From: Promethearchaeota archaeon
GTDB lineage: Archaea; Asgardarchaeota; Lokiarchaeia; Sigyniarchaeales; SOKP01
Direction: 5' to 3'
Assembly: GCA_004524535.1 (NCBI GenBank)
Contig: SDNY01000045.1
Location: 1-27,885, forward strand
Length of the DNA stretch: 27,885 nt
Of the stretch, positions 3,737 to 25,631 are shown piece by piece (position 1 is the stretch's first letter; each line of letters begins with the position of its first letter). Position numbers and translations under genes: made by a program. A model generated the notes under the pieces. The model did no database searches. It was given only the letters and a program-made list of their open reading frames with translations, and was not told the origin of the DNA.

Positions 3737-4513
3737 ATTTTATTAAATTACTTTATTGGGACAGCAGGTAGTGGAAAATCCACAATTACAGGACAATTAA
3801 AAGATTATATAATAAATCGAGATCCAGAGATCTCTGCCATTACTATAAATCTAGATCCGGGTGTCAAGATTATACCCTACACTCCAGATATAGATATACG
3901 AGATTTTATTGTCCTCGAAGAGGTTATGGAAGAATACGGATTAGGTCCTAATGGTGCGATGATATTAGCCTCAGATTTAATGATTAATTATTTAGACGAC
4001 TTAAAGGATGAGATCGACGAGTATAATTCTGATTGGGTTTTAGTGGATACTGCTGGTCAGTTAGAACTTTTTGCATTCCGAGAAACGGGACCTTTAATAG
4101 CAAGTTCTTTAGGATTTGGTGATATACAAAGGTCTGTATGTTTCCTTTTTGATTCGAATTTTGTTCTTAGACCAAACGGTTTTATATCAACACTGCTTTT
4201 AGCAGCTTCGGTACAATTCCGGTTCAGAAAAATCTCTCAAATTAATATACTTTCAAAAGCAGATTTATTAGATGAAGATCAGATAGATATGATCGTTAAT
4301 TGGAGCCAAGATTTTCAAGCTCTGGAAGAATCTACGAGTGAGAGAGAGATAGGATTAATCCGGGAGTTATCAATGGATTTAGCTGAGGTGTTTATTCAAA
4401 TGGGATCAACTGCCGAATTAATTCCGTGTACTATTAAAGAAGAAAATGGTCTTGATCTATTATTTGGAAGTTTGCAAAGAGTCTTTGATTCAGATAAATC
4501 AAGGTTTTATTGA
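3737..4513 (+). CDS. GPN-loop GTPase (ATP_bind_1 / PRK13768-type); probable ATT start
   Basis: The frame extends upstream of ATG 3926 through the P-loop FIGTAGSGKST and NLDPG. GLGPNG, VDTAGQLE and SKADLL motifs follow. Confidence 0.92.
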   Translation: MLLNYFIGTAGSGKSTITGQLKDYIINRDPEISAITINLDPGVKIIPYTPDIDIRDFIVLEEVMEEYGLGPNGAMILASDLMINYLDDLKDEIDEYNSDWVLVDTAGQLELFAFRETGPLIASSLGFGDIQRSVCFLFDSNFVLRPNGFISTLLLAASVQFRFRKISQINILSKADLLDEDQIDMIVNWSQDFQALEESTSEREIGLIRELSMDLAEVFIQMGSTAELIPCTIKEENGLDLLFGSLQRVFDSDKSRFY

Positions 4514-5700: not shown

Positions 5701-5899
5701 GATCTCCTGTAATCCCCTTTACAAAAGCATCCACATGTATAATTATTTTTTCTGATCAAAATTATTAAAAAATTGTAAAAAACCTTTTCATACTATTATT
5801 TTAAATTGAGTAAAGTATTAATTTTAGCAAAATAAATTTATTAGTTAATTAAAAAAGTTTTTTTTAAACCAAAATATAACATTATTACGGAGATTTTTA

Positions 5900-7333
5900 A
5901 TGCCTTATAATATCGCCTTTGACCTTGGACATAAACCAAGAGGTTTGATAGATCAAAACTATACCGAACTCCGAGATTATTTAAACGCTAACGATTTTAT
6001 ATGCTATAATTACTTAGAAATTCCCATAACGCAGGAATCTTTAAAGTCTTATGATATACTAGTCTTTGTGTGTCCTGATTATGCAAAACTCTCACAACAA
6101 GAAATAATTGAAATTGTAAATTGGGTAAAAGAAGATGGTGGAGGCTTATTATTACTCTCACATGCAGGAGGTGATAGAGGCAGAAATAGTAATTTATCAG
6201 AATTAAGCGAATTTTTTGGCATATCCTTTGAAAATGATCAAGTTCTTGACGAGATAAATAATATTGGAATAGAAAATCTGCCCTTAATAACTGCTAATAA
6301 TTTCATTCCCCCACATCCTATTACAAACGGCATTAATGAGATATGCTATCGTGCGGGCTGTTCACTTAATGTTCATGGGGGAGCTATTTCTATAATTTCT
6401 TCAAATGAGACTTCTGAACCCTTTTCTTGTCCGTTAGTATGTGTTTTCGAACCAGAAAACGGCAGAATTTGTGCAATTGGAAGTTATGAGCTGTTTAGAG
6501 ATAATACTGGAGGCGGGTTTCAAAATGATGAGCATGCGGAATTAGGATTAAATATCTTTAAATGGCTTATAAGCGAATATAGGATGGAATTATCACAACA
6601 TGGCACAGTTCCTGTTGCTCAAACTACTCCGGGCGAGACAGAATCTAATTCAACAGAACAATATACCTCACCATATAGTACTGATATTGATACGCAAAGT
6701 ATTGAACATATTGAACATATTGATTCATCTATAACATTTTCGTCAAGAGAAGAATTAACAGGTCTCTTAGAGAGTTATTTACATCAAATTAACACTATTA
6801 AAAATAATATTGAATCTCTCATTAAACATATAAATACTTATGGTGATGCAATTTTTGAACAAGTGCCTCAAGAAAGTGAAGCGACAGAAATTATTGAGGA
6901 AGAGGATAGTATTCCTTTGTCTGCTTTACCACCTAAACCTCAGGATTTTGGGAAAAAAGGTGAGAAAGAAAAAGAGGGTACCCCCGAAGTTATCATTGGA
7001 CTTGAGCCTGTTGAATCTTATGAACGAGATACTGTAGAAAAAGTTTCAGATAATGCTCTAGCTGAAATTGCTAAATCAAAAGAATCTAAATCCAAATCCA
7101 AATCTGAAGCTAAAAAACCACCGATAGATGAAAAAGAAAAATTACAAGCAGAGCTGGAAAGTTTAGAATCAAAATTAAATTCTGTTCATAATTTAATAAA
7201 TTTTATCGAAAAGAAGCATCAATCGGGCAAATTAGATGATAAATCTTACGAAAAACAAACGCGCAAATTACAAAATGATTTAGGAAACACTGAAAATCGT
7301 ATCGCAGAAATTAAAGATATTTTAGAAGGTTAA
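5900..7333 (+). CDS. GIFT (GldG/IFT52/DUF4350-like) domain protein with acidic linker and C-terminal coiled-coil hairpin
   Basis: N-terminal ~225 aa: IAFDLGH...ITQESLKSYDILVFVCP...GGGLLLL...NLSELSEFFGISFENDQV...HPIT...GRICAIGS...NIFKWL. No signal peptide. The rest is low-complexity, then helical. Confidence 0.7.
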   Translation: MPYNIAFDLGHKPRGLIDQNYTELRDYLNANDFICYNYLEIPITQESLKSYDILVFVCPDYAKLSQQEIIEIVNWVKEDGGGLLLLSHAGGDRGRNSNLSELSEFFGISFENDQVLDEINNIGIENLPLITANNFIPPHPITNGINEICYRAGCSLNVHGGAISIISSNETSEPFSCPLVCVFEPENGRICAIGSYELFRDNTGGGFQNDEHAELGLNIFKWLISEYRMELSQHGTVPVAQTTPGETESNSTEQYTSPYSTDIDTQSIEHIEHIDSSITFSSREELTGLLESYLHQINTIKNNIESLIKHINTYGDAIFEQVPQESEATEIIEEEDSIPLSALPPKPQDFGKKGEKEKEGTPEVIIGLEPVESYERDTVEKVSDNALAEIAKSKESKSKSKSEAKKPPIDEKEKLQAELESLESKLNSVHNLINFIEKKHQSGKLDDKSYEKQTRKLQNDLGNTENRIAEIKDILEG

Positions 7334-10146: not shown

Positions 10147-10458
10147 AAGAAATCAGCTCTAATTTAAAATATGTTTTAATAATTAAAAATATCAAAAATT
10201 ATTAAATTTAAATTATTCAAATGTAATTGCTGAAAAACTATAAATCTTTATATCAAATTTGGCAATTGGAGGTATTTTACACTTTTTCAAGGTCAGAAAT
10301 TAACGCACTTTTTTCTAATATTTAAAAATAGTTGGAATAAAAAGAAATTTTTATGACAAAAAATATGTAGGATTTAGTTGATTAGAGATTAAAAATTCTA
10401 GCTGTAGAATTATAGGGAGAAATATTCGATTTAAATCAATATTATGAGAAATATACTT

Positions 10459-10626
10459 TCAATAGAAGTATTTTTCATCATATTCCTCTTCTTGATAATC
10501 ATCCCAATCGTCATATCCCTCGTCATCATCATAATCTACATTTTCCTCGTCATCAAAATCGTCTTCATCATCCCAATCTTTCTCATTCTTTTTTTTATTT
10601 GGTCCTGCACAAAATTTTAATACCAT
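10459..10626 (-). CDS. Acidic microprotein A (55 aa): basic leader plus D/E-aromatic tail
   Basis: Below the track cut-off. Translates to MVLKFCAGPNKKKNEKDWDDEDDFDDEENVDYDDDEGYDDWDDYQEEEYDEKYFY. Strong SD (GAGGAG) upstream of the ATG, mixed synonymous GAT/GAC and GAA/GAG codons, and a similar ORF at 20099-20254. Confidence 0.8.
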   Translation of the reverse strand: MVLKFCAGPNKKKNEKDWDDEDDFDDEENVDYDDDEGYDDWDDYQEEEYDEKYFY

Positions 10627-10705
10627 TTCTAACTCCTCAATCTTTTATTTATTTGAATAAGATTAGAAATAATTATTAATTCACTTATCAATAAATCTAA
10701 ACCTC

Positions 10706-10720
10706 TATTTAAATATTTTG
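10706..10720 (-). promoter_or_regulatory. Candidate BRE/TATA promoter of microprotein A
   Basis: Minus strand CAAAATA-TTTAAATA about 80 nt upstream of ATG 10626. The AT-rich background limits certainty. Confidence 0.4.
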
Positions 10721-11149
10721 TAACAAAATTTAAATAAAACAAGATTTAACTCTTAGATACGTATAGTTAAATAAAATTAATTTTGATATGTAATATCATT
10801 TTAAATTGAGAAGATTTAGCTCAAAGCATTTCAAATCTAAGAGATTTTCTCAAACATATCTGAAAACCCCTAAATATATCTCTTTATAAAATCTTTATCT
10901 TTTTCTAATGATATAATTAAAACATTTTATTTATTTAATACATATAAAATAAGATTTATACATATCTAATATGTTAAACTTTTAGAATATCTTATAAATA
11001 TTTGAAATAAATGCTGGAAAATAGATATTAAGATGAATTAAAAACACAAATTAGAAATAAGTTTGAATCAGTTTATTCTTTAATATCTAATTTAAAAGAA
11101 GTTTCCATTTGTACTTAGTAAATTATTTGAGATAATTCTTTTTGACATA

Positions 11150-12151
11150 TTAAATAATATTTAATCTTTGGAATAAACCAGTAACCAGAATCGGTAGTGC
11201 TATTGTAGCATCACACCAAACACTCACATACTGAGAATCTAGAGCATATTTTCCCCATGATTTAGATTCTGAAGTTGTACACCCTGAGAGACCTCCGTCA
11301 TATTCCGTTGCTGTATGAATACGAACAGAATACTTATAACCAGATTCAATTCCATGATCTCTTAGTTGTTCAAGATGCTCTAAATATGGAAAGATTTGTT
11401 GTGCCCAATTTCTTGGTACACCACCACCAACAATAAATAACCCAGCTTTCTTATGTGATTTTATAATTTCTGCAAATTTTTTAACATCCTCAAAAATGTT
11501 AAAATTAAATTCATAACCCTCCTTAATAGTGAATTTAACTAAATCTAATGCTAACTCAGAGTCGCTAAAAGCAGGTATAAAAACAGGGATATTATGTTTA
11601 GTAGCTAGGGAAAGAATACATTTTTTATCTATTTTATTTCCAATTAATTTTAGAAATTCAGAGGGAGAAATTTCTAACTTTTTATCCTTACATATTTGAT
11701 TTATTATCTCTAAAAGTTTATTCCTTGTTATTTTATAATTATCCTCAGGGAGAAATGTATCATATATTCTATTAATTTCAAGGTTATAGAGCTCATTATC
11801 ATCCACATTGGGGCTTCCTATATAATGTCCGATATTAACTATTGTGTCAATTAAATCATGAGTAATATTAGCACCTGTTGTAATCAACACATCAATAATA
11901 TTATGTTCGATTAATGAGCAAATTAATCCTCCCATACCTGCTGGAACCATTGCCCCAGAAAGGGCTAAAATTTTTAGACATTCTTTATCTGAAACCATTT
12001 TTTCAAGGATATCAAGTGCGTTCCCTAAATTTCTTCCTTGAAATCCACAGTATTTAAGATTTTCTAAAAGATCTTCTATATTTCTGATTTTATTCACATC
12101 GAAAGGAATAACTTTCTTTATTAAATAATCATCTTTAATATTAGGTCTCAT
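11150..12151 (-). CDS. dhs: Deoxyhypusine synthase family protein
   Basis: GFQGRNL, SGAMVPAG, TTGANITHD, PAFSDSE, GGGVPRN and DGGLSG...SWGK (catalytic Lys retained). Confidence 0.93.
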   Translation of the reverse strand: MRPNIKDDYLIKKVIPFDVNKIRNIEDLLENLKYCGFQGRNLGNALDILEKMVSDKECLKILALSGAMVPAGMGGLICSLIEHNIIDVLITTGANITHDLIDTIVNIGHYIGSPNVDDNELYNLEINRIYDTFLPEDNYKITRNKLLEIINQICKDKKLEISPSEFLKLIGNKIDKKCILSLATKHNIPVFIPAFSDSELALDLVKFTIKEGYEFNFNIFEDVKKFAEIIKSHKKAGLFIVGGGVPRNWAQQIFPYLEHLEQLRDHGIESGYKYSVRIHTATEYDGGLSGCTTSESKSWGKYALDSQYVSVWCDATIALPILVTGLFQRLNII

Positions 12152-12226
12152 ATAATAAGAAAATGTTTAAATAAATAAAATATTAATTATTATTATTAAA
12201 TTACATAATTTTAATTCTTCCAAAAT

Positions 12227-12775
12227 ATGTCATTAGTTCCTAAAGCGGTATGTTTTGTAAAGGGTAATGGTTTTCATAAATCTAAATTAGGTTCTTTTGA
12301 AAATGCTTTAAGATCTGCTGGTATTGCTAAATTTAATATAGTTAAAGTAAGTTCAATATTGCCCCCTTACTGTATTGAAATTCCACAAAAGGATGGATTA
12401 GCTCAACTTCGTGCTGGACAAGTAGTATATATTGTAATGAGTAGAGCGAGCAGTAATGAATTCAATCGTTTAATTTCCGCTTCTATAGGTGTTGCTAAAC
12501 CTGCTGACCAAAGAACATATGGTTATTTAAGTGAACATCATGCTTTTGGAGTAACACCCGATAAAGCAGGAGAATTTGCTGAAGATTTAGCAGCGGAAAT
12601 GTTAGCAACTACTTTAGGAATTCCATTTGATCCTGAAGCAAATTATGATGAGAAAAAAGAAATTTTTAGAATGGACGAAAAAATTGTTGAAACCAAGAAT
12701 ATAACTGAATCTGTAACTGTTAGAGAAGAAAATGAATGGGCTACGGTATTAGCAGCAGCCGTTTTTATAATTTAA
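12227..12775 (+). CDS. pdaD: Pyruvoyl-dependent arginine decarboxylase
   Basis: SFENALRSAGIAKFNIVKVSSILPP (Ser-Ser autocleavage site), YGYLSEHH and LAAEMLATTLG. Confidence 0.93.
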   Translation: MSLVPKAVCFVKGNGFHKSKLGSFENALRSAGIAKFNIVKVSSILPPYCIEIPQKDGLAQLRAGQVVYIVMSRASSNEFNRLISASIGVAKPADQRTYGYLSEHHAFGVTPDKAGEFAEDLAAEMLATTLGIPFDPEANYDEKKEIFRMDEKIVETKNITESVTVREENEWATVLAAAVFII

Positions 12776-12835
12776 ATTTGCATCCAAAATTTTTATTTGA
12801 TGGATTGATTTTTTTAGCAAAATTTAGGAAAATGG

Positions 12836-13945
12836 ATGATGAATGGCGAAATTGTCTTTTTTCAATTATTTGATGTTGGTCGATATATTGATCTAAATGA
12901 AATTCAATCTATTTTCCCGGGAATTAGAGATAAGAAAATTATTAAAACTAAAGATACTCCTGATTATATTATTATTCCCGAAACAATTCGGGTTGAAATT
13001 GAACAAGATATTATAGTAAAATCTAGTAATCTAAAGAATTTTAAAGCTCAGATAAAACTTTATGAAGATGGGGTAATTTCTTTTACTATAAGAATAGATT
13101 TTGTTGATTTACCGTTAGAACGTTTTCATTCTATTCGAAATACTGAGATAAATACGCCAGATGGCACATATAAAATTGAAAATTGGATTAAACTTCAATT
13201 TAGTAATTTTTATGAACTTTCTGGAGACTATATTGATTCATATTTTAACTCCTTAGATCATATTGAGTCCGAAAAATATACTTGTTTTTGTATAACAGAT
13301 GTTTTTAAAGACCCTAATGCATTTATTGGAGAAAATGAGAATTATTTAGCTCCATTTTTAATGGGAGAAAATCCTGAATTAGATCTTCATCAAAATCAGA
13401 TTAATAATACATTAAAAAATTCATTTTCTTTTTTAAAACAGGATATTGCTATTTTTGATTTTGATCGGTGTCTTATCTTTGATTCGACAAAAGATTATGA
13501 AGATCTCTTGCTTATTATAGAATTAGCAAATTTTCAGCGTTTAGAATTAAGAACGCTAGATCGCTTGTTAGATATACATTTGGATAGCGCAGAAGATGAT
13601 ATACGTAGTATTTTTATTAAAAGTCGATTATTTTTGAGAAGATTGAATAAAAAATTAGGCTATTTATTTAGAATAAGGTATGATTTTATCTTTATCTTTG
13701 AAAATTTAGAAAATGTCTCAAAAATCATTGGGGATTACTATTTAGCTCAAATTTATCGTCATTTGGGAAAAGTTTTCCGATTTAAACAATGGAGTGAAAG
13801 TATACGCAATAGAATGAGAATATTGGATGAGATATATACAACGGCAAAAGCTACTAAGACAGATAAATTAATAATTTACTTGGAAATTCTATTAGGTATT
13901 GTATTTACTCTGGAATTTATACTGTTTCTTCTAGGATTGTATTAA
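12836..13945 (+). CDS. RMD1/DUF155-like protein with single C-terminal TM helix
   Basis: FDVG...LYEDGVISF, LELRTLDRLLD, GDYYLAQIY...W...I.NRM..LDEIY, and terminal LEILLGIVFTLEFIL. Confidence 0.65.
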   Translation: MMNGEIVFFQLFDVGRYIDLNEIQSIFPGIRDKKIIKTKDTPDYIIIPETIRVEIEQDIIVKSSNLKNFKAQIKLYEDGVISFTIRIDFVDLPLERFHSIRNTEINTPDGTYKIENWIKLQFSNFYELSGDYIDSYFNSLDHIESEKYTCFCITDVFKDPNAFIGENENYLAPFLMGENPELDLHQNQINNTLKNSFSFLKQDIAIFDFDRCLIFDSTKDYEDLLLIIELANFQRLELRTLDRLLDIHLDSAEDDIRSIFIKSRLFLRRLNKKLGYLFRIRYDFIFIFENLENVSKIIGDYYLAQIYRHLGKVFRFKQWSESIRNRMRILDEIYTTAKATKTDKLIIYLEILLGIVFTLEFILFLLGLY

Positions 13946-14333
13946 AAAAATAAAGTATTTTTAAACTTCTTTTAAAAAGACTCTTCACGATATTCAGTAA
14001 TATAAAAGCAATATTATATTCGATATCGCTTAACATCATAATTATTCGTCAGGGAGCGAAAAAAACTAAATATTGCAGACATTTTAAAATCTACTTTTTA
14101 TTATATCTCCAATTATAATCTCAATTATTAACTCTCTTCCTCAAAAATTCAAAAAATTAGAATATCGTATAATAAATTAAATGAGACCTAATAAATTTTT
14201 GATTCAATTCTTTTGAAGAGAAAGGTTTAAATGCATGAATTAATTTATATAAGAATTGGGTATATTTGTTTTAATTAATAAGAACAAATTAATTAAAATA
14301 TGGGGTTATTAAATAAATTTTTAATAAGATAAA

Positions 14334-14759
14334 ATGATAAAAATATTTATTGTAGAAGATGACCTTCAATTAAGACTATTGTATGAAAAAGTCCTGAAAC
14401 AAGAGGGATTTGAGATAGTTGACACTGCTATAAATGGTCTTGAGGCTATTGAAAAATTTCATGATTTTGTCGTCAAACCCGATCTCATTTTAATGGATTA
14501 TATGATGCCGATAAAAGATGGTTTGGAAACAATGAAAGAGATTCTTGCCTTCGATGATAAAGCAAAAATAGTCATAATGAGTGTTGATAGAGATATTAAA
14601 GAGCAAGCATTAAGGAATGGTGCCATTGGATTCATCAACAAACCATTCTCATTTAGATATGTTTCCAACTATCTTAAGAAATTAATTAAATCTCAAAAAG
14701 AAAGAACAGATTTAAATAGAAAAAATCCCTTTAAACCAAGTTTAAATTATTGCTTTTAA
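14334..14759 (+). CDS. Single-domain response regulator (CheY-like receiver)
   Basis: IVEDD, PDLILMDYMMP.KDG, IMS and NKPF motifs. Confidence 0.93.
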   Translation: MIKIFIVEDDLQLRLLYEKVLKQEGFEIVDTAINGLEAIEKFHDFVVKPDLILMDYMMPIKDGLETMKEILAFDDKAKIVIMSVDRDIKEQALRNGAIGFINKPFSFRYVSNYLKKLIKSQKERTDLNRKNPFKPSLNYCF

Positions 14760-14801
14760 GATTGCTATAATGTTTTTCATATAAATTTCGGAAAATGACA
14801 G

Positions 14802-15371
14802 TTATTCCGGAAGGGAATGATTATACTTGTTTACATAAGCAAATTTGTTTAAAGACAATCTTCCAGGTCTTTTTAATTCAGTCATTTTCATAAGTTCTGT
14901 TAATTCAGGATTAAGGTTAATAGCTTTTTTACCAATAATAATGAGCGAAATAACTTTCATGTTGTTAGGAATTTCAAGTACTTCTTTTACGTATTGTTCA
15001 TTGAAACCTCCGATTGGATGGGCAACAAATCCTAATTCTGTAGCCCGTAATATTAGAAATGCTGTAGCTAATCCAGTATCAAATAAGTAATAAAGACGTT
15101 CTTTCATGACACAATCATATTCCAAACGGCTAAATACCGCTATTATCATTGATGCTCTCTTAATCCATTGATTACCAGGGATAGCACTTGAAAAAAGTTT
15201 CTTTAATTGATTCTTATCATAAACGAATATAAAACGCCAAGGTTGGGAATTTTTACAAGAAGGGGCTAATTGAGCACACTCTGCTAATTCAGTAATTAAA
15301 TCTTTATCTATTTGAATAGGGTCAAGAGACCGATAGCTTCTTCTCTGATATATTACATCTTTAACAGACAT
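14802..15371 (-). CDS. Nitroreductase family protein
   Basis: RRSYR, APSCKNSQPWRF, DTGLA...LRATELG and HPIGGF. Confidence 0.93.
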   Translation of the reverse strand: MSVKDVIYQRRSYRSLDPIQIDKDLITELAECAQLAPSCKNSQPWRFIFVYDKNQLKKLFSSAIPGNQWIKRASMIIAVFSRLEYDCVMKERLYYLFDTGLATAFLILRATELGFVAHPIGGFNEQYVKEVLEIPNNMKVISLIIIGKKAINLNPELTELMKMTELKRPGRLSLNKFAYVNKYNHSLPE

Positions 15372-15633
15372 TTTTAAACACCTTAAATCAAGATAATTTT
15401 ATTGGATTTAGGTTATTTAATTAATAAAATTAAGCAAAGAATTTCAATCTTCTCTTCTTGAAATATTTTAAATGTTTAAGCGGATAATAAATACTTAAAA
15501 AATTAGTTTCCTTTACATAAACTACCTTAAAAATCCAATATGTTTTCAATACTAAATTAGAGTTTTTTTGCATTCATAAAACTTCATAATCTATTTTTCT
15601 CAATATCTCAAAAAATATTTTTTTAACATCAAA

Positions 15634-16887
15634 TCAAAGAAAATCTTCTTTTACTTTTCCTTTAAAAGTGTATAAAATTATAATAATTCCAAGAACAATA
15701 AATAAAAGATTTATATCCCATATCATAATCAAAGCGATGAAAGGAAAAACTAATGCTCTTATCAACATACGAAACATATTTATAGTGCTTAAAAAAGTTG
15801 CCCGATTGTCCTCCTTTAATTGTTTATTAATACCATTTAGAAGGATTATATATCTAGAAAGGCCAAATCCAACAGTTATTAGAATTAATATAATGATAAT
15901 TGGAGCAAAAAATATAATTCCCATCAAAAAATACCCTATTCCAGGTATTATTGTATTTAAATAAAGAAGTCTTTTTTTATTTTTTACCTCTTTTTCTAAG
16001 GATGATAATAGATTTAAGAAAAAGGCTTGTATTAAAGTCAAAAATGCTTCAATAAATCCCAAATAAAGCAACGAAATATTTAATTCTTTTATTAAATAAT
16101 ATTGATAGCCTAAAACTAAAAAAATAACAAGTAATTCGATTACTATAAGATCGAATGTCAGAATCCTTAATATTTTATTTTCTTTAAATATAGATAATCC
16201 CGATTTTATTGAAGAAAAAAGTTTTTGTTTTTTATTAGTTGAAATTCCATGAGGCTCCTTTATTGTGAGAGAAATAAAGGTGCCTGTTATATAAGGAATA
16301 AACATTAATGTCATAACTAATGGTAAGGAATAATAAAATGCAATCAAGGCTCCTAGAGGGGCTGATATAACAATTCCCAATAAAAATAGGCCATTACTCT
16401 TTCCTATTACTCTCGAAAATTTTTTTTCTTTTCCTAAAACCTTCAGAGATTCATATACTAACGCCTCATTTGTACCTGACATTAAAGCAGTTCCTAATGC
16501 GAATAATGTTTCTCCTACAATAAATAATATTATATTAGGCATAATTCCGTAAATTAAAGCTCCTAAAGCGCTCGAAAGTCCAGCTAAAACTAAACACCAT
16601 TTCTTATTTAAACGATCTGCTATTAATCCGCATGGAATTTCAAAGAGAATTATCATTATTGTATAGTAACTCTGTAATAAAGCAAATTCAAAGAATGTTA
16701 GTCCTCCATAAATAAGAAAGAATGGGATTATAACTCCTGAGATTAAATAACATCCCATTAAAAAATGAAAAATATACATTTTTTTAATATTTGAGCTTAT
16801 TTTAAGTTTGTTTAACTCAATCTTCCCATTAATTTGATTTACATGTTTGCTTTCCAGTTCTTTCAATTTATACATTTTCATCACCAA
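15634..16887 (-). CDS. MFS transporter (exact start uncertain)
   Basis: About 12 hydrophobic segments; FEIPCGLIADRLNKK and SGTNEALVYESL motifs. Confidence 0.9.
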   Translation of the reverse strand: MVMKMYKLKELESKHVNQINGKIELNKLKISSNIKKMYIFHFLMGCYLISGVIIPFFLIYGGLTFFEFALLQSYYTIMIILFEIPCGLIADRLNKKWCLVLAGLSSALGALIYGIMPNIILFIVGETLFALGTALMSGTNEALVYESLKVLGKEKKFSRVIGKSNGLFLLGIVISAPLGALIAFYYSLPLVMTLMFIPYITGTFISLTIKEPHGISTNKKQKLFSSIKSGLSIFKENKILRILTFDLIVIELLVIFLVLGYQYYLIKELNISLLYLGFIEAFLTLIQAFFLNLLSSLEKEVKNKKRLLYLNTIIPGIGYFLMGIIFFAPIIIILILITVGFGLSRYIILLNGINKQLKEDNRATFLSTINMFRMLIRALVFPFIALIMIWDINLLFIVLGIIIILYTFKGKVKEDFL

Positions 16888-17564
16888 TTACGTTTTAGAT
16901 CACCTTTAATTAAAGATGGTTAAGAGTTTTTTATTAAATATTTAAGATGATAATATTCTATACAGATCTAATAATCCTTTTAAAATTTTAAATCAGTTAA
17001 AGGAAATTTATACTAATTCAAAATTGATTAAATCCATGATTAGGGGATCAATTCTTTTTTCCTTTATAGACTTGAAAATATATAAGACAAATGAAATGTT
17101 AAAAGACAATTATCAAGTATTAAGGAGGTGTATCTCTATTAGAACCAGATTTAATACATAAGAGGCATATTCAATTTCGTATGGAATTTTATTTTTCCAA
17201 TTGTAATTAGATATATACAATTTCATATTACATGCACCTATCTTAATATTACTATAATGAAAAAAGATCTTAATAAATTTATCTAATTATATATCGGATA
17301 ATATTGATTAAAATAAATAATTTTCTAAAAATATGATAATTTTTGCATTTTATATGATGGATTATTCAACATTATCGTCCTTCTGCAATTGTTTTCAATG
17401 ATTGATAATGATAACAAAAAAATATTCAAATATAATTGAATTGGAATAGATCTTGTACTATATTAATCTAAATTTAGCTACACAATTAAAGTTGAAAATA
17501 AAAATCAAAAAAAAGAAAAAAAAAAATAGTTCAATATTAGTTTTTTGTTATCTTATTAGGTATT

Positions 17565-18038
17565 TTAGATAATTATTGGCAAGGGGGGCACAAAATTATC
17601 TTGATTTTTAGAGATCCATGGTTGGCCGTTAGGTATAATATATTTATCAATAATCCCTTGACAGTTTTCTGCTCTGCATAAACATTTGAATGTCCATCGA
17701 TTATCCCAGTATCCCGGATCTTCATTTTCATGTACAATATTATAACTAATAGTTAATTCTTCGTTAAATCTTACAGATCGAAGAGTTACAACATCAAGAT
17801 TGTCATTAATTTTACAATTTGGATCACATGAATGATTCAAATAACGAGCATTTGTTATTGGTATGACCCATCTCTCCCTATCTATTAAAAGAGCATAATA
17901 AATTTCCTCAAGCGGGATTTCTTCCTTAAAAACAATTATTCCATTAAAATTTTCAACAATAATTCCCGCGGGTAAATCATATTGAGCAATTAAACATTTT
18001 CCATAGACACAATTATCAACTTTAGAGGGATATTCCAA
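17565..18038 (-). CDS. SET-domain protein-lysine methyltransferase with post-SET Zn motif
   Basis: RYLNHSCDPN, EELTISY and post-SET CLCRAENCQG. TTG start with GGTGA 7 nt upstream. Confidence 0.92.
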   Translation of the reverse strand: MEYPSKVDNCVYGKCLIAQYDLPAGIIVENFNGIIVFKEEIPLEEIYYALLIDRERWVIPITNARYLNHSCDPNCKINDNLDVVTLRSVRFNEELTISYNIVHENEDPGYWDNRWTFKCLCRAENCQGIIDKYIIPNGQPWISKNQDNFVPPLPIII

Positions 18039-18078
18039 GAAATATTCACCAATTCCATTTGAAATAAGTATTGGTTTA

Positions 18079-20007
18079 TTAAATTAATTTATCGTTGATA
18101 CTATTTTCAGTTGCGATTAAAATCTCTTTAAGCATTTCCTGATAGGTAAGCCCTCCATATTTGGCCATTTTAGCGAGATGCCCATCCCAACACCATCCGG
18201 GATTAGGATTTACTTCTAGAAGTTTTGGATTTCCTTCACCATCAAGTCTCCAATCAAAACGAGCATAATCTTTGCATTCCAATCTTTCAAATAACTTTAA
18301 ACTGCAAGATTCTATTATTTCTCTAGTTTTATCAGGAAGTATAGCTGGAATTGACTTTATATTCCAATAAGGTGAGTCAGGTAACCATTTTGCTTCATAT
18401 CCACATATTTTGGGTAATTCTGGAGGTAGATCAGAATAATCATCTTCAGAAATAGGTAATATCCTATATTGATTTGGAGGATTTCCAATGATACCTACAG
18501 TTAGGTCTTTTCCTGTAAGGAACTGTTCAACTATTATGGATTGATCATAGCCAAACTTACCTCTAATTTCATTTATAGCATCAATTAATTCTTCACCATT
18601 ATAAACTACACATCTCTGTGTGATCCCAAAGCTAGAGTCCCCAAAATTAGGTTTAACTATTGCGGGAAAATATAAAGGTAAATCAAAAGCTTTATCACCT
18701 GGTCTAATAAAAATAGCTTCTGGTACAGGAATATCCATCTCTTTTGCAATACCTCTCACAAGCGATTTATCATAACAAAATGCGAGACATTGAGGGCCAG
18801 CACCAGTATAAGGAATATGGAGAATATCTAATAAAGCTGGCACATGTAATTCATTTCTGGCAGTATTATAATACCCTTCATCGCATAGATTAAGGACATA
18901 ATCAATATTTCCATTGATTTTTATTAAATCAGAGATTAATGAATCGTGATTTGTTAAATATATGAATTGATAGCCCTTAATACTTCTTAAAGCATCTTTT
19001 AGTTGATCAATTGTATAGAAATCATCATCATCAAAAATATGAGCAGGTTTCAATACATCTGGCTTATTAGGATCACCCATAATAACAACTACTTTCTTTT
19101 CGGCACTTTTAATTGTTTTTTTAATTGGTGTCCATTGTTTTTTCACAAGGGCACTTATAATAAGCCGTTTTTCCATCATACCTAGATCTTGGTTTCTTCG
19201 GGAATTTGGGGTCAGAGTTCCATGAAATAATACATCACTAAGACCTGCATTTACTAATAATTCTTGAATTTTCTTTTCTGAATAGAGCCTTTCAGCATAG
19301 AATTGATCTACTAAAACTCCATCATTAACATGGCTTATAACTTCTCGAGAAATAAGCCGCTGCTTATCTAGAGAAAGTGAGCGTTCTCTACATACATAAT
19401 GCTCTCTATCTATCCATTCCCAAGATCGCGGTTGATAATTATTTTTTAAGTATTCTCCATCAGTCAAGTCAATTAGGATATGCCCCCACGGTTTTAAAAC
19501 TCGAAATACCTCTTTTAATACTTTTAGATCATCTTGTATTGAGTCAAAATATCCAAAGCTATTCCCTAAAATCATTACAACATCAAAAGAATCAGGGGGA
19601 TAAGGAAGAATTCTAGCATCTCCCTCTCGAAATTTTACAGAGAGATTCTTATTTCTGGCAGTCTTTTTCGCCTCCTGAATAAGGAAACGAGATTTATCTA
19701 AACCTTCTACTCTATTAAAGCCTCTTTTTGCTAATTCTAAAGAATGTCTACCATGTCCACAACATAAATCTAAAATTTTCTTGTTGCTTTCGAGATTAAG
19801 GATTTTTGTGTATATATCAATTTCTCTTGATGTAATTTCCTCATCATTAACAACATCTCCATCGGTCTTTAAATAATAAGAATTAAAAAGATGATTCCAC
19901 CAATCTTTGCGAACATAATCTTCTAAATTTGACACAGGACCTAAGCATGGAAATAAATCATCAACATTTTTGTTTTTTATATTACTAATGTTTACATTTT
20001 TGGTCAT
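18079..20007 (-). CDS. Fusion: class I SAM methyltransferase + D-Ala-D-Ala-ligase-like ATP-grasp domain
   Basis: N-terminal ILDLCCGHGRHS, GDAR and GNSFGYF. C-terminal IPYTG...YDK, IVKP...SSFGI, VEQFLTGKDLTVG, YEAKW, YARFDWR and LLEVNPNPG. Confidence 0.93.
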   Translation of the reverse strand: MTKNVNISNIKNKNVDDLFPCLGPVSNLEDYVRKDWWNHLFNSYYLKTDGDVVNDEEITSREIDIYTKILNLESNKKILDLCCGHGRHSLELAKRGFNRVEGLDKSRFLIQEAKKTARNKNLSVKFREGDARILPYPPDSFDVVMILGNSFGYFDSIQDDLKVLKEVFRVLKPWGHILIDLTDGEYLKNNYQPRSWEWIDREHYVCRERSLSLDKQRLISREVISHVNDGVLVDQFYAERLYSEKKIQELLVNAGLSDVLFHGTLTPNSRRNQDLGMMEKRLIISALVKKQWTPIKKTIKSAEKKVVVIMGDPNKPDVLKPAHIFDDDDFYTIDQLKDALRSIKGYQFIYLTNHDSLISDLIKINGNIDYVLNLCDEGYYNTARNELHVPALLDILHIPYTGAGPQCLAFCYDKSLVRGIAKEMDIPVPEAIFIRPGDKAFDLPLYFPAIVKPNFGDSSFGITQRCVVYNGEELIDAINEIRGKFGYDQSIIVEQFLTGKDLTVGIIGNPPNQYRILPISEDDYSDLPPELPKICGYEAKWLPDSPYWNIKSIPAILPDKTREIIESCSLKLFERLECKDYARFDWRLDGEGNPKLLEVNPNPGWCWDGHLAKMAKYGGLTYQEMLKEILIATENSINDKLI

Positions 20008-20098
20008 TTATATTTAATTCCTTTTTTTTAGTCTTTAATTTGAATTTTTCTATAATTTTATAAAAAAAAATTTGATTTTTCACATTTATTCCGTTGAA

Positions 20099-20254
20099 TT
20101 AGTCATAATATCCATCATTTTCTTCATCCCAGTCTTCATCTTCGTCCCAATCATCATCCTCATCATCCTCATCGTCGTCCCAATCATCATCCACATCATC
20201 TTCCTCTTTTTTTCTTGTTTTGGGGGGTGTAAAAATATTTTTTTTTAGGGTCAT
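20099..20254 (-). CDS. Acidic microprotein B (51 aa): basic leader plus D/E-aromatic tail
   Basis: Below the track cut-off. Translates to MTLKKNIFTPPKTRKKEEDDVDDDWDDDEDDEDDDWDEDEDWDEENDGYYD. SD-like GAAGTGA and BRE/TATA upstream; lies 91 bp upstream of the MTase/ATP-grasp gene on the same strand. Confidence 0.8.
   Translation of the reverse strand: MTLKKNIFTPPKTRKKEEDDVDDDWDDDEDDEDDDWDEDEDWDEENDGYYD
20142..20192. repeat. 18-bp direct repeat (tcgtcccaatcatcatcc) at 20142-20159 and 20175-20192
   Basis: Read directly. The 33-nt period encodes the duplicated DDDWD unit of microprotein B. Confidence 0.85.
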
Positions 20255-20305
20255 ATTTTTCACTTCTTTTCATTAAATTATTAATTGTTGAAATAAATAT
20301 CATAA

Positions 20306-20337
20306 TATATAAATGTTTTCATTGAAAACTTTAAATA
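20306..20337. promoter_or_regulatory. Back-to-back divergent BRE/TATA promoters
   Basis: TATATAAA-T-GTTTTCA-T-TGAAAAC-TTTAAATA: minus strand GAAAACA-TTTATATA, plus strand GAAAAC-TTTAAATA. Confidence 0.65.
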
Positions 20338-24614: not shown

Positions 24615-25631
24615 TCAAATTATTTGAAGAATCAACCATTTTAATGCGTTAATAATCTCATCATCATCTTTTAGAATATTTAATGAATAGAATTGAAGTT
24701 TAACTACTTTTTTTTGCTCCTCTGACAGTTTTAGATAATTATAAACTTCATTTTCTTCTAAAGATCTCTCTCCCTCAGAAATGTTTTCGATTATCAAGAT
24801 TGGAAAATTTATTGTTTTATCTGCAATATTAATAATAATTTTTTCAATATCCTCTTTTAATTTTTTTATATTGTCTTCCTTTCCATTTTTGAATAGATAT
24901 ATAAAAGCCTGTATAGTATCTAAATCAAGAGATGAATTTAAATCAATTCTTGGATATGGAATTTTAATGTTTTCAATTAAAACACTAAAAATACGTGTGG
25001 AGAGACTGAAATCTTTTTGTTTGTAAAATTGGATGGCTTCAATATTCTTTAGTAAAATTTGTTTACCAGCATTTTTTTGCCCTATAATGAAGATTTTTCT
25101 TTTGATTCTTGAATCCTTAGTAATAATATTAATCTCGGGGTCAAGAACTAGTTTATTAAAAAAATGATTGAAAATAGGAAAAAAGTCGACATTATGTTCT
25201 TTACACAATAGATTCAAATCTGTTTCATTAGGATCTTTTTTATGACTATGTAAAATTAAGTTAAAGTTTGGTAATTGCGTAAGCTGAGATTCAAAATCTT
25301 CAAGAATTTCTACTTTAGAATTTAAGTAATTATAAACATCTCCTAATTCATACTTGAAAAAAGAGGTCCGTAGGAGAAATGAGATCATCAATAATTCAGA
25401 TCCGCCCCTTGCCATCTTCGAGGAAATACGGAATATATGGTTAATAGATTGATATCTCCGAAATGAAAATAAAAAGGATCCTGAATGCTCACTAAATTCT
25501 AATATTCGAAAAAGATCTGGAAAATCCTTATCATCTGGTTTGGATGGTTGACAATATAAAAAATTGGGTCCGATTCTTTCATCAAAATATAATATACATA
25601 GATACTTTGCTTCTAACAAAGTTTGAACCAT
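24615..25631 (-). CDS. Longin/uDENN-like domain fused to degenerate small-GTPase-like domain
   Basis: N-terminal ILYFDERIGP...F.I.SKMARGG.ELLMISF; C-terminal RKIFIIGQKNAGKQ, QAFIYLF, PILIIEN and ALKWL. Confidence 0.65.
   Translation of the reverse strand: MVQTLLEAKYLCILYFDERIGPNFLYCQPSKPDDKDFPDLFRILEFSEHSGSFLFSFRRYQSINHIFRISSKMARGGSELLMISFLLRTSFFKYELGDVYNYLNSKVEILEDFESQLTQLPNFNLILHSHKKDPNETDLNLLCKEHNVDFFPIFNHFFNKLVLDPEINIITKDSRIKRKIFIIGQKNAGKQILLKNIEAIQFYKQKDFSLSTRIFSVLIENIKIPYPRIDLNSSLDLDTIQAFIYLFKNGKEDNIKKLKEDIEKIIINIADKTINFPILIIENISEGERSLEENEVYNYLKLSEEQKKVVKLQFYSLNILKDDDEIINALKWLILQII

Follow-up and report, generated by a model that had tools for sequence, protein, structure and literature searches.

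Two putative microprotein genes on contig SDNY01000045.1

A stretch of 27,885 nt from a lokiarchaeal genome (Promethearchaeota archaeon, assembly GCA_004524535.1, contig SDNY01000045.1; hereafter the window) contains two small open reading frames (ORFs), pepA and pepB, which are very probably genes of a family of acidic microproteins found across the Asgard archaea. pepA (10459-10626, minus strand, 55 aa) starts with an ATG at 10626 and joins a basic head, MVLKFCAGPNKKKNEK, to an acidic tail, DWDDEDDFDDEENVDYDDDEGYDDWDDYQEEEYDEKYFY, which is rich in Asp, Glu, Trp, Tyr and Phe; a Shine-Dalgarno (SD)-like GAGGAG (10633-10638, minus) lies 6 nt upstream of the start codon. pepB (20099-20254, minus strand, 51 aa) starts with an ATG at 20254 (or at an in-frame GTG at 20263, which would make the peptide three residues longer) and consists of the head MTLKKNIFTPPKTRKK and an acidic DW tail, EEDDVDDDWDDDEDDEDDDWDEDEDWDEENDGYYD, ending in NDGYYD. 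An earlier description of the window made from the letters alone (the sequence-only reading) had presented these two ORFs as look-alikes on the same strand, with an M-x-L-K start, a Pro followed by a Lys/Arg cluster, a leader of 16 residues, DWD motifs and a Tyr-rich end, and translation at the same coordinates confirmed all of these features. It had further assigned SD-like sites to both, which is correct for pepA and holds less well for pepB, where the site is a weak GAAGTGA. The T9 tract 28 nt past the pepB stop codon (20062-20070, minus) is a likely archaeal terminator, and the TATA-like TTTATATATT (20304-20313, minus), which was spotted by eye some 50 nt before the start codon of pepB and is retained in the close relative G005, may act as its promoter.

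In the genome (3.66 Mb, 30% G+C), pepA and pepB are the only ones among 24,156 small ORFs (25-150 aa) with at least 45% Asp plus Glu, and in the ranking of the most acidic 30-residue segments from all six-frame open segments they hold the first (25/30) and the third place (21/30). By simple arithmetic, the chance that two random points in 3.66 Mb fall within 9.6 kb of each other is about 0.5%. When the acidity criteria were relaxed, no more than two weak candidates were added, a protein of 59 aa that combines CxxC...CxxC with a tail of Asp and Tyr (C47:198-377, minus) and a 56-aa Lys-rich and acidic ORF with a single DDDW (C52:38606-38776, minus), each of which is either a distant relative or unrelated. 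Long acidic extensions were also seen on three proteins of housekeeping appearance: C7:10801-11580 (minus), which by eye we take to be Spt5/NusG-like and which ends in ...EEDEWAKFDGF, and C188:43062-43601 and 32412-32933 (minus), both presumably ribosomal-protein-like on the same kind of inspection.

Codon-use scores of the acidic frames (0.27 for pepA, 0.18 for pepB) lie within the range of the genome, where 55-codon chunks of long ORFs have a mean of 0.30 (sd 0.13). Each acidic frame faces an open antisense frame of 58 aa, one rich in Ile, Phe and Leu opposite pepA (10444-10620, plus) and a hydrophobic one opposite pepB (20072-20248, plus), and their scores (-0.42 and -0.43) are lower than the 1st percentile for chunks of real genes (-0.085). 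The antisense frames are open because the sense strand has no TTA, CTA or TCA codons and acidic codons give no antisense stops; we regard them as by-products. Since synonymous codon use is in the genome range for the acidic frames and outside it for the antisense frames, the acidic strand is taken to be the coding one.

Relatives of both ORFs were found in other genomes. G008, from the same genus, has a syntenic pepA orthologue (between the genes for deoxyhypusine synthase and a sugar nucleotidyltransferase), and in G005 a 53-aa relative of pepA adjoins arginine decarboxylase. Among public predicted proteins, P0003-P0006 are 78-82% identical to pepA (one of them labelled ‘hypothetical protein’ by JGI), and others are 69% and 76% identical to pepB. 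The Trp, the V/I-[DE]-Y-D motif and the head are kept in the relatives of pepA. In two pepB orthologues, P0013 (47 aa) and P0014 (40 aa), the N-terminal MTLKKNIFTPPK and the C-terminal NDGYYD are conserved, and the three lengths (51, 47 and 40 aa) differ through in-frame loss of acidic repeats. The sequence-only reading had supposed such peptides to be invisible to standard gene callers; this is not so, as relatives are present as predicted proteins in the ENA, JGI and Logan sets. As far as sequence comparison can tell, pepA and pepB are with high confidence real, conserved coding genes.

A microprotein family across the Asgard archaea

An alignment-profile search for relatives found 7 places only and missed members of its own alignment, and a DNA pattern for W-D-[DE]...D-W-[DE] was used instead, with the reversed pattern as control. 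This kind of search, which the sequence-only reading had suggested for Asgard and other genomes, gave matches in 216 of the 399 Asgard genomes compared with about 25 for the control (counted from the table). In another archaeal phylum, chosen through a locus titled Nitrososphaerales and with smaller genomes, the pattern matched in 33 of 301 genomes and the control in about 50, and 1 of 41 was acidic among the matches listed. Forty Asgard matches were picked by eye for acidity among the matches listed and were then fetched: 32 are small ORFs of the pepA/pepB build, from the GTDB families f1 (nine genera), f13, f16, f18 and f19, and the remainder are two PCNA tails, five sites within larger proteins and one short open frame (L191).

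The family statistics rest on 46 curated members. These are 29-81 aa long (median 48), with a median net charge of -24. The head is short and Lys/Arg-rich, often with G-P-K-K-K (G-P-[KREDN] occurs in 19 of the 46 heads), and the leader before the acidic run comprises 1-26 residues (median 13); the leader of exactly 16 residues shared by pepA and pepB is therefore coincidental, and the M-x-L-K start is no property of the family either. The tail is composed of 49% Asp, 26% Glu, 8% Trp, 5.5% Tyr and 2.5% Phe, with 0.5% Lys and 0.6% Ser, and Thr is not among its 12 commonest residues. Its motifs are DWD, V-E-Y-D and N-D-G-D-Y, with a Trp, Tyr or Phe every few residues. An N-D-G-D/Y-type motif was found in 14 members (e.g., L186:4926-5141, L193:4961-5071 and pepB with NDGYYD), among which a W-D-N-D-G-D-[YW]-E submotif recurs; we take the NDG-type submotif to resemble DxDxDG calcium-binding loops.

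Signals for translation and termination accompany the family genes. A 5-mer SD at the proper distance precedes 23 of the 46, against 3% of 16,844 small ORFs and 8.9% of long ORFs, and in 26 of the 46 the first T-run within 120 nt past the stop codon has at least 7 T, against 8.7% of the small ORFs (both backgrounds were taken from the genome that hosts pepA and pepB). When the family profile was built without close kin, the score of pepA was reached by none of 500 composition shuffles and by none of 500 shuffles that preserve the layout of head and tail. A profile search of 1.84 billion representatives returned 8 matches, all of them small proteins (32-83 aa); no fused form appeared at that threshold, the ‘longer’ length class lying outside the search. 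The peptides match no Pfam or NCBIfam model, and PHROGs and PADLOC gave none at E <= 1. AlphaFold2, run with the family alignment, produced no secondary structure (mean pLDDT 62, pTM 0.11) and so predicts that the family peptides are disordered. No description of the family was found in the part of the literature covered by our searches, and within these libraries and that literature the family appears to be undescribed.

At 7 loci of one Asgard family (f16), PCNA genes that adjoin RFC subunit genes end in C-terminal tails of 40-50 residues of the ...EDWDEDEDEDEDWDEDEE type, with the DWDE motif of the free microproteins: L146:649-1551, L149:682-1566, L150:643-1551, L151:682-1551, L152:1485-2357 (minus), and also L160 and L163. 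The Pfam domain PCNA_N was confirmed for L149 only, and RFC domains (Rep_fac_C, AAA) for one neighbouring gene.

Relationship and gene order of pepA and pepB

The sequence-only reading had seen in the two ORFs an old paralogous family. A family does exist, conserved and wider than was guessed, but direct homology of pepA and pepB is not demonstrable from sequence beyond the shared layout of basic head and acidic tail: when pepB was compared with the pepA-type rows alone, 59 of 500 layout-preserving shuffles scored equally well. At the DNA level the two loci share no long identity, as had been stated (best blastn E 0.024; longest alignment 43 nt at 77%). Position helps more than sequence in arguing for kinship, as pepA-like peptides (DWDEDVEYDDD...) occupy the place of pepB beside a methyltransferase-ATP-grasp gene in other genera.

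The reading had also proposed that the roughly 10 kb between pepA and pepB might form one functional island. The genes in between encode deoxyhypusine synthase, arginine decarboxylase, a 369-aa unknown protein, a response regulator, a nitroreductase, an MFS transporter, a SET protein and a methyltransferase-ATP-grasp fusion; they are unrelated in function (a mixture of housekeeping and variable genes) and lie on both strands. In G008 the order is pepA, deoxyhypusine synthase, arginine decarboxylase and the 369-aa gene, followed 112 nt on by an Arf-like gene that is at 24.6 kb in the window. Since the tblastn map of G008 places the 369-aa gene directly before the Arf-like gene, that genome lacks at this place the segment 13946-24614 of the window, with its genes for the response regulator, nitroreductase, MFS, SET and ATP-grasp fusion proteins, pepB and four others. 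A third arrangement was seen in a check of four metagenomic DNA runs (the contigs of which represent scattered relatives): in contigs of two marine-sediment runs, 13756 is linked to 18159 through 332 nt of other sequence, and the populations concerned lack the response regulator, nitroreductase, MFS and SET genes at this place. In G005 the two peptides are on different contigs, and in G001 the gene for the 369-aa protein is followed by one for a family peptide of 71 aa.

The island is contradicted by these arrangements. What recurs in this archaeal family is a loose neighbourhood of the ATP-grasp fusion, the 369-aa protein, deoxyhypusine synthase, arginine decarboxylase, an RHH-like 194-aa protein and a CitMHS permease, within which the peptide copies sit at varying spots. 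pepA and pepB are close together owing to a lineage-specific gene order around this old neighbourhood, and they do not delimit an island; what matters here is the peptide family, the bracketed block of about 10 kb being an accident of gene order. Two family peptides about 600 bp apart on the same strand were also found in two genomes of another Asgard family (L158:99-227 and 816-968; L159:4985-5137 and 5726-5845), and nearby pairs are therefore not unique to the window.

Neighbours of the family peptides

The most frequent neighbour of the peptides within the archaeal family of the window is the fusion of a methyltransferase with an ATP-grasp domain of the D-Ala-D-Ala-ligase type (18079-20007, minus, 642 aa; Pfam). 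A peptide lies within about 1.5 kb of it at 5 (intact) plus 1 (frameshifted) of 11 loci of the same family and near it at 8 of the 17 loci titled as Asgard or archaeon; conversely, the fusion stands beside the peptide at 8 of the 31 pattern-derived loci (the window's own included), in both orientations. The enzyme itself is very conserved (62-72% identical across 80 loci titled as Asgard archaea and as many bacterial phyla, Planctomycetota and Atribacterota among them), and it reaches the cut-off of no NCBIfam model. At the 63 loci titled other than Asgard or plain ‘archaeon’, mostly from bacterial phyla, no DW-type peptide was found. Clustering of the neighbours revealed no neighbour family common to the Asgard families, and the peptides of f13, f16, f18 and f19 have other neighbours. 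Since the enzyme occurs elsewhere without the peptide and the peptides of other families are placed elsewhere, the adjacency is best read as inherited gene order.

The other neighbours vary. Downstream of the peptide lie the ATP-grasp fusion, a sugar nucleotidyltransferase or a MobA-like gene (the latter at 7 loci, all from one archaeal family), and among 49 peptides the next gene is on the same strand in 26, convergent in 21 and missing in 2. Copies of the pepA type stand beside deoxyhypusine synthase and arginine decarboxylase at 4 of the 31 loci, from two genera, as well as in G008 and G005.

Elsewhere in the window, the match of an ORF resembling a GPN-loop GTPase (3926-4513, plus) to Pfam ATP_bind_1 begins no earlier than profile position 57, so that the ORF seems to lack the P-loop part; it is 96% identical in G008. 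Two further proteins are eukaryote-like: one with an IFT52 GIFT domain (5900-7333, plus; E 3e-14) and the 338-aa product of the Arf-like gene (24615-25631, minus), whose match to the Arf family is weak (E 5e-4) and below the cut-off.

Possible roles of the peptides

The best overall explanation, to which we give a probability of about 0.5, is that pepA, pepB and their relatives are genuine, separately transcribed genes of an Asgard-wide family of disordered acidic microproteins that act in trans as polyanionic ligands. Stand-alone genes are supported by the convergent next gene in 21 of 49 cases, by the T-runs past the stop codons and by the absence of a shared neighbour family. The DWD-acidic motif at the end of PCNA is one hint at the role as a ligand. 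The functional part of this explanation, a disordered polyanion that would serve basic protein surfaces as a ligand in trans, has in our estimate a little less than an even chance. The peptide would imitate a nucleic acid and lay its acidic chain, held in place by the aromatic residues, on basic grooves of partner proteins, in the manner of DSS1/Sem1, prothymosin-alpha, the acidic tail of bacterial RNA polymerase delta and the tails of SSB; the basic head might either fold back on the tail or tether it.

Several observations weigh against this explanation. The pepA orthologues of G000 (the genome of the window) and G008, the closest pair, are 93.5% identical, while the flanking intergenic DNA is 92-94% identical; about half of the 11 substitutions in this pair are non-synonymous, and purifying selection is not evident at such a distance. 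As this is the sole pair whose DNA aligns cleanly, and its intergenic DNA is conserved like its genes, the comparison of dN/dS is uninformative. The fit of pepB to the family profile built without close kin is modest (matched by 15 of 500 layout-preserving and 1 of 500 composition shuffles), and its orthologue in G005 (locus L002, G005:C28, about 2812-2915, minus) is frameshifted in a poly-A run. The frameshift splits this orthologue within an A9/A7 stretch but leaves both of its conserved ends legible; it may reflect a fault of the assembly, decay to a pseudogene or slippage. One pattern match, L191, is an open frame of 28 codons without a start, and 32 of 40 is not an unbiased rate because the matches had been chosen by eye for acidity. 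The hint from the PCNA tails is a likeness of motif to the microproteins, not homology. A look for RNA runs covering 10400-20300 of the window returned none. Finally, no partner was found in our searches, and no structure or family match supports any mode of binding.

Alternatively, the tail could bind Ca2+, Mg2+ or polyamines weakly but in large amounts, and this buffering or sensing of cations could itself be the function. The tail composition (49% Asp, 26% Glu), the NDG-type motif in 14 of 46 members including pepB, with its apparent likeness to calcium loops, and the position of pepA-type copies next to deoxyhypusine synthase and arginine decarboxylase, both linked to polyamines, are consistent with such a role. 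Ion binding has no need, however, of conserved and regularly spaced Trp, Tyr and Phe residues or of a V-E-Y-D core, and the adjacency to polyamine genes occurs in two genera only, on differing sides and strands; we consider this alternative unlikely.

A role in cis is less likely again. As a leader, the peptide would destabilize the translating ribosome through its N-proximal acidic run, sense Mg2+, polyamine or aIF5A in this way and set the read-through of a T-tract into the downstream gene. The acidic run begins after only 1-26 residues, and the N-proximal position is reported to be the most prone to intrinsic ribosome destabilization (PMC12673854, PMC9718836). A same-strand gene follows in 26 of the 49 cases, at a median distance of 137 nt and with a T-tract between, and pepB lies 91 nt before the ATP-grasp gene, so that such a role may hold for a subset such as pepB. 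It cannot be a general role, because 21 of the 49 peptides face a convergent gene; 2 more have no next gene, the downstream genes differ, and specific residues and both termini are conserved beyond what an acidic composition would need. Intrinsic ribosome destabilization is not known from archaea.

More doubtful still is the possibility that the peptide is a substrate or precursor of the neighbouring ATP-grasp enzyme, which would modify its tail in the manner of RiPPs or of RimK and tubulin ligases. The two genes are adjacent in at least five genera (g1, g2, g4, g6 and g11), on the same strand as well as divergently, but the enzyme has no DW-type peptide beside it at any of the 63 non-Asgard, non-‘archaeon’ loci and in about half of the Asgard loci, the peptides of four other Asgard families have other neighbours, the tail offers almost no Lys (0.5%) or Ser (0.6%) for graspetide cross-links, and pepB has its own T9 tract. 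That pepA and pepB are no genes at all, but frames left open by chance in low-complexity DNA rich in G and A, or the shadows of antisense hydrophobic genes, is hardly credible: low-complexity sequence, codon-phase antisense frames that are all open, one frameshifted relative and a closest pair without clear purifying selection would agree with it, against which stand the codon use of the acidic frames, that of the antisense frames under the 1st percentile of genes, the SD sites, start, stop and termini kept across in-frame length changes, and a phylum-wide recurrence well beyond the controls.

Resemblance to known systems

For free peptides that would act in trans as polyanionic ligands, one model is DSS1/Sem1, a small, disordered and very acidic eukaryotic protein in which Trp and Phe residues set in runs of Asp and Glu dock partners, and which is a cofactor of the proteasome lid, TREX-2 and BRCA2. 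The Asgard peptides share with DSS1/Sem1 (PF05160) that they are small, disordered, acidic and stand-alone, and the latter belongs to the lineage thought closest to the Asgard archaea; they differ in carrying an N-terminal Lys/Arg head. At E <= 10, PF05160 (gathering score 32.2 bits) matched none of the six family peptides compared with it and nothing in the whole genome, and the part of the literature covered by our search held nothing joining Asgard archaea and DSS1.

The C-terminus of RNA polymerase delta (RpoE) of Gram-positive bacteria likewise combines a Lys tract with a long Asp/Glu tail, which is disordered and in competition with nucleic acid, and the sole PDB chain touched by the family profile was 6zfb_D (the Lys tract and acidic tail of RNA polymerase delta), at a non-significant E of 1.3 (12 bits). 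Unlike the Asgard peptides, delta comes from another domain of life, has a folded N-terminal domain and lacks regular Trp residues, so the likeness is one of analogy only. Prothymosin-alpha, the acidic tails of histone chaperones and the tails of SSB and T7 gp2.5 are polyanionic, disordered and bind basic or DNA-binding proteins, some of them with aromatic anchors; these are eukaryotic, bacterial or phage proteins or the tails of larger proteins, and homology with them is not expected, whereas the Asgard motif is a free gene of 30-80 aa and, in one family, also a PCNA tail. With acidic leader peptides of the MgtL type the family shares a short ORF, an N-proximal acidic run and, often, a position upstream of a gene past a terminator-like tract, but the Asgard peptides are much longer, have conserved aromatic positions and, in 21 of 49 cases, have no same-strand gene downstream. 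PF28156 (‘Highly_acidic’) and the ‘highly acidic protein’ clusters of the ESM Atlas are alike in size (51-62 aa) and composition. By language-model features they come nearest to the family, with Bacillota as the recorded taxa, but their scores of 0.75-0.79 (PF28156 0.75) are below the 0.9 threshold for a lead.

Significance

No known organisms are more closely related to the eukaryotes than the Asgard archaea, whose small proteins have received hardly any study. Disordered motifs of acidic and aromatic residues are characteristic of regulation in eukaryotes. A bolder and rather speculative extension, which we rate as improbable, is that the DWD-acidic microproteins form an Asgard-wide system of free tails, in which one motif, occurring both as a free microprotein and as a tail of PCNA, would be read by a conserved basic partner from replication or chromatin (the clamp loader, histones or polymerases) or from the translation machinery. 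If this were true, the system would be an archaeal forerunner or a functional analogue of adaptors of the DSS1/Sem1 type or of the tails of histone chaperones. The family is abundant (more than half of the Asgard genomes searched have matches), has strong translation signals and belongs to no assigned family, and the occurrence of an acidic-aromatic motif both as free genes and as a PCNA tail makes it accessible to experiment in the Asgard archaea.

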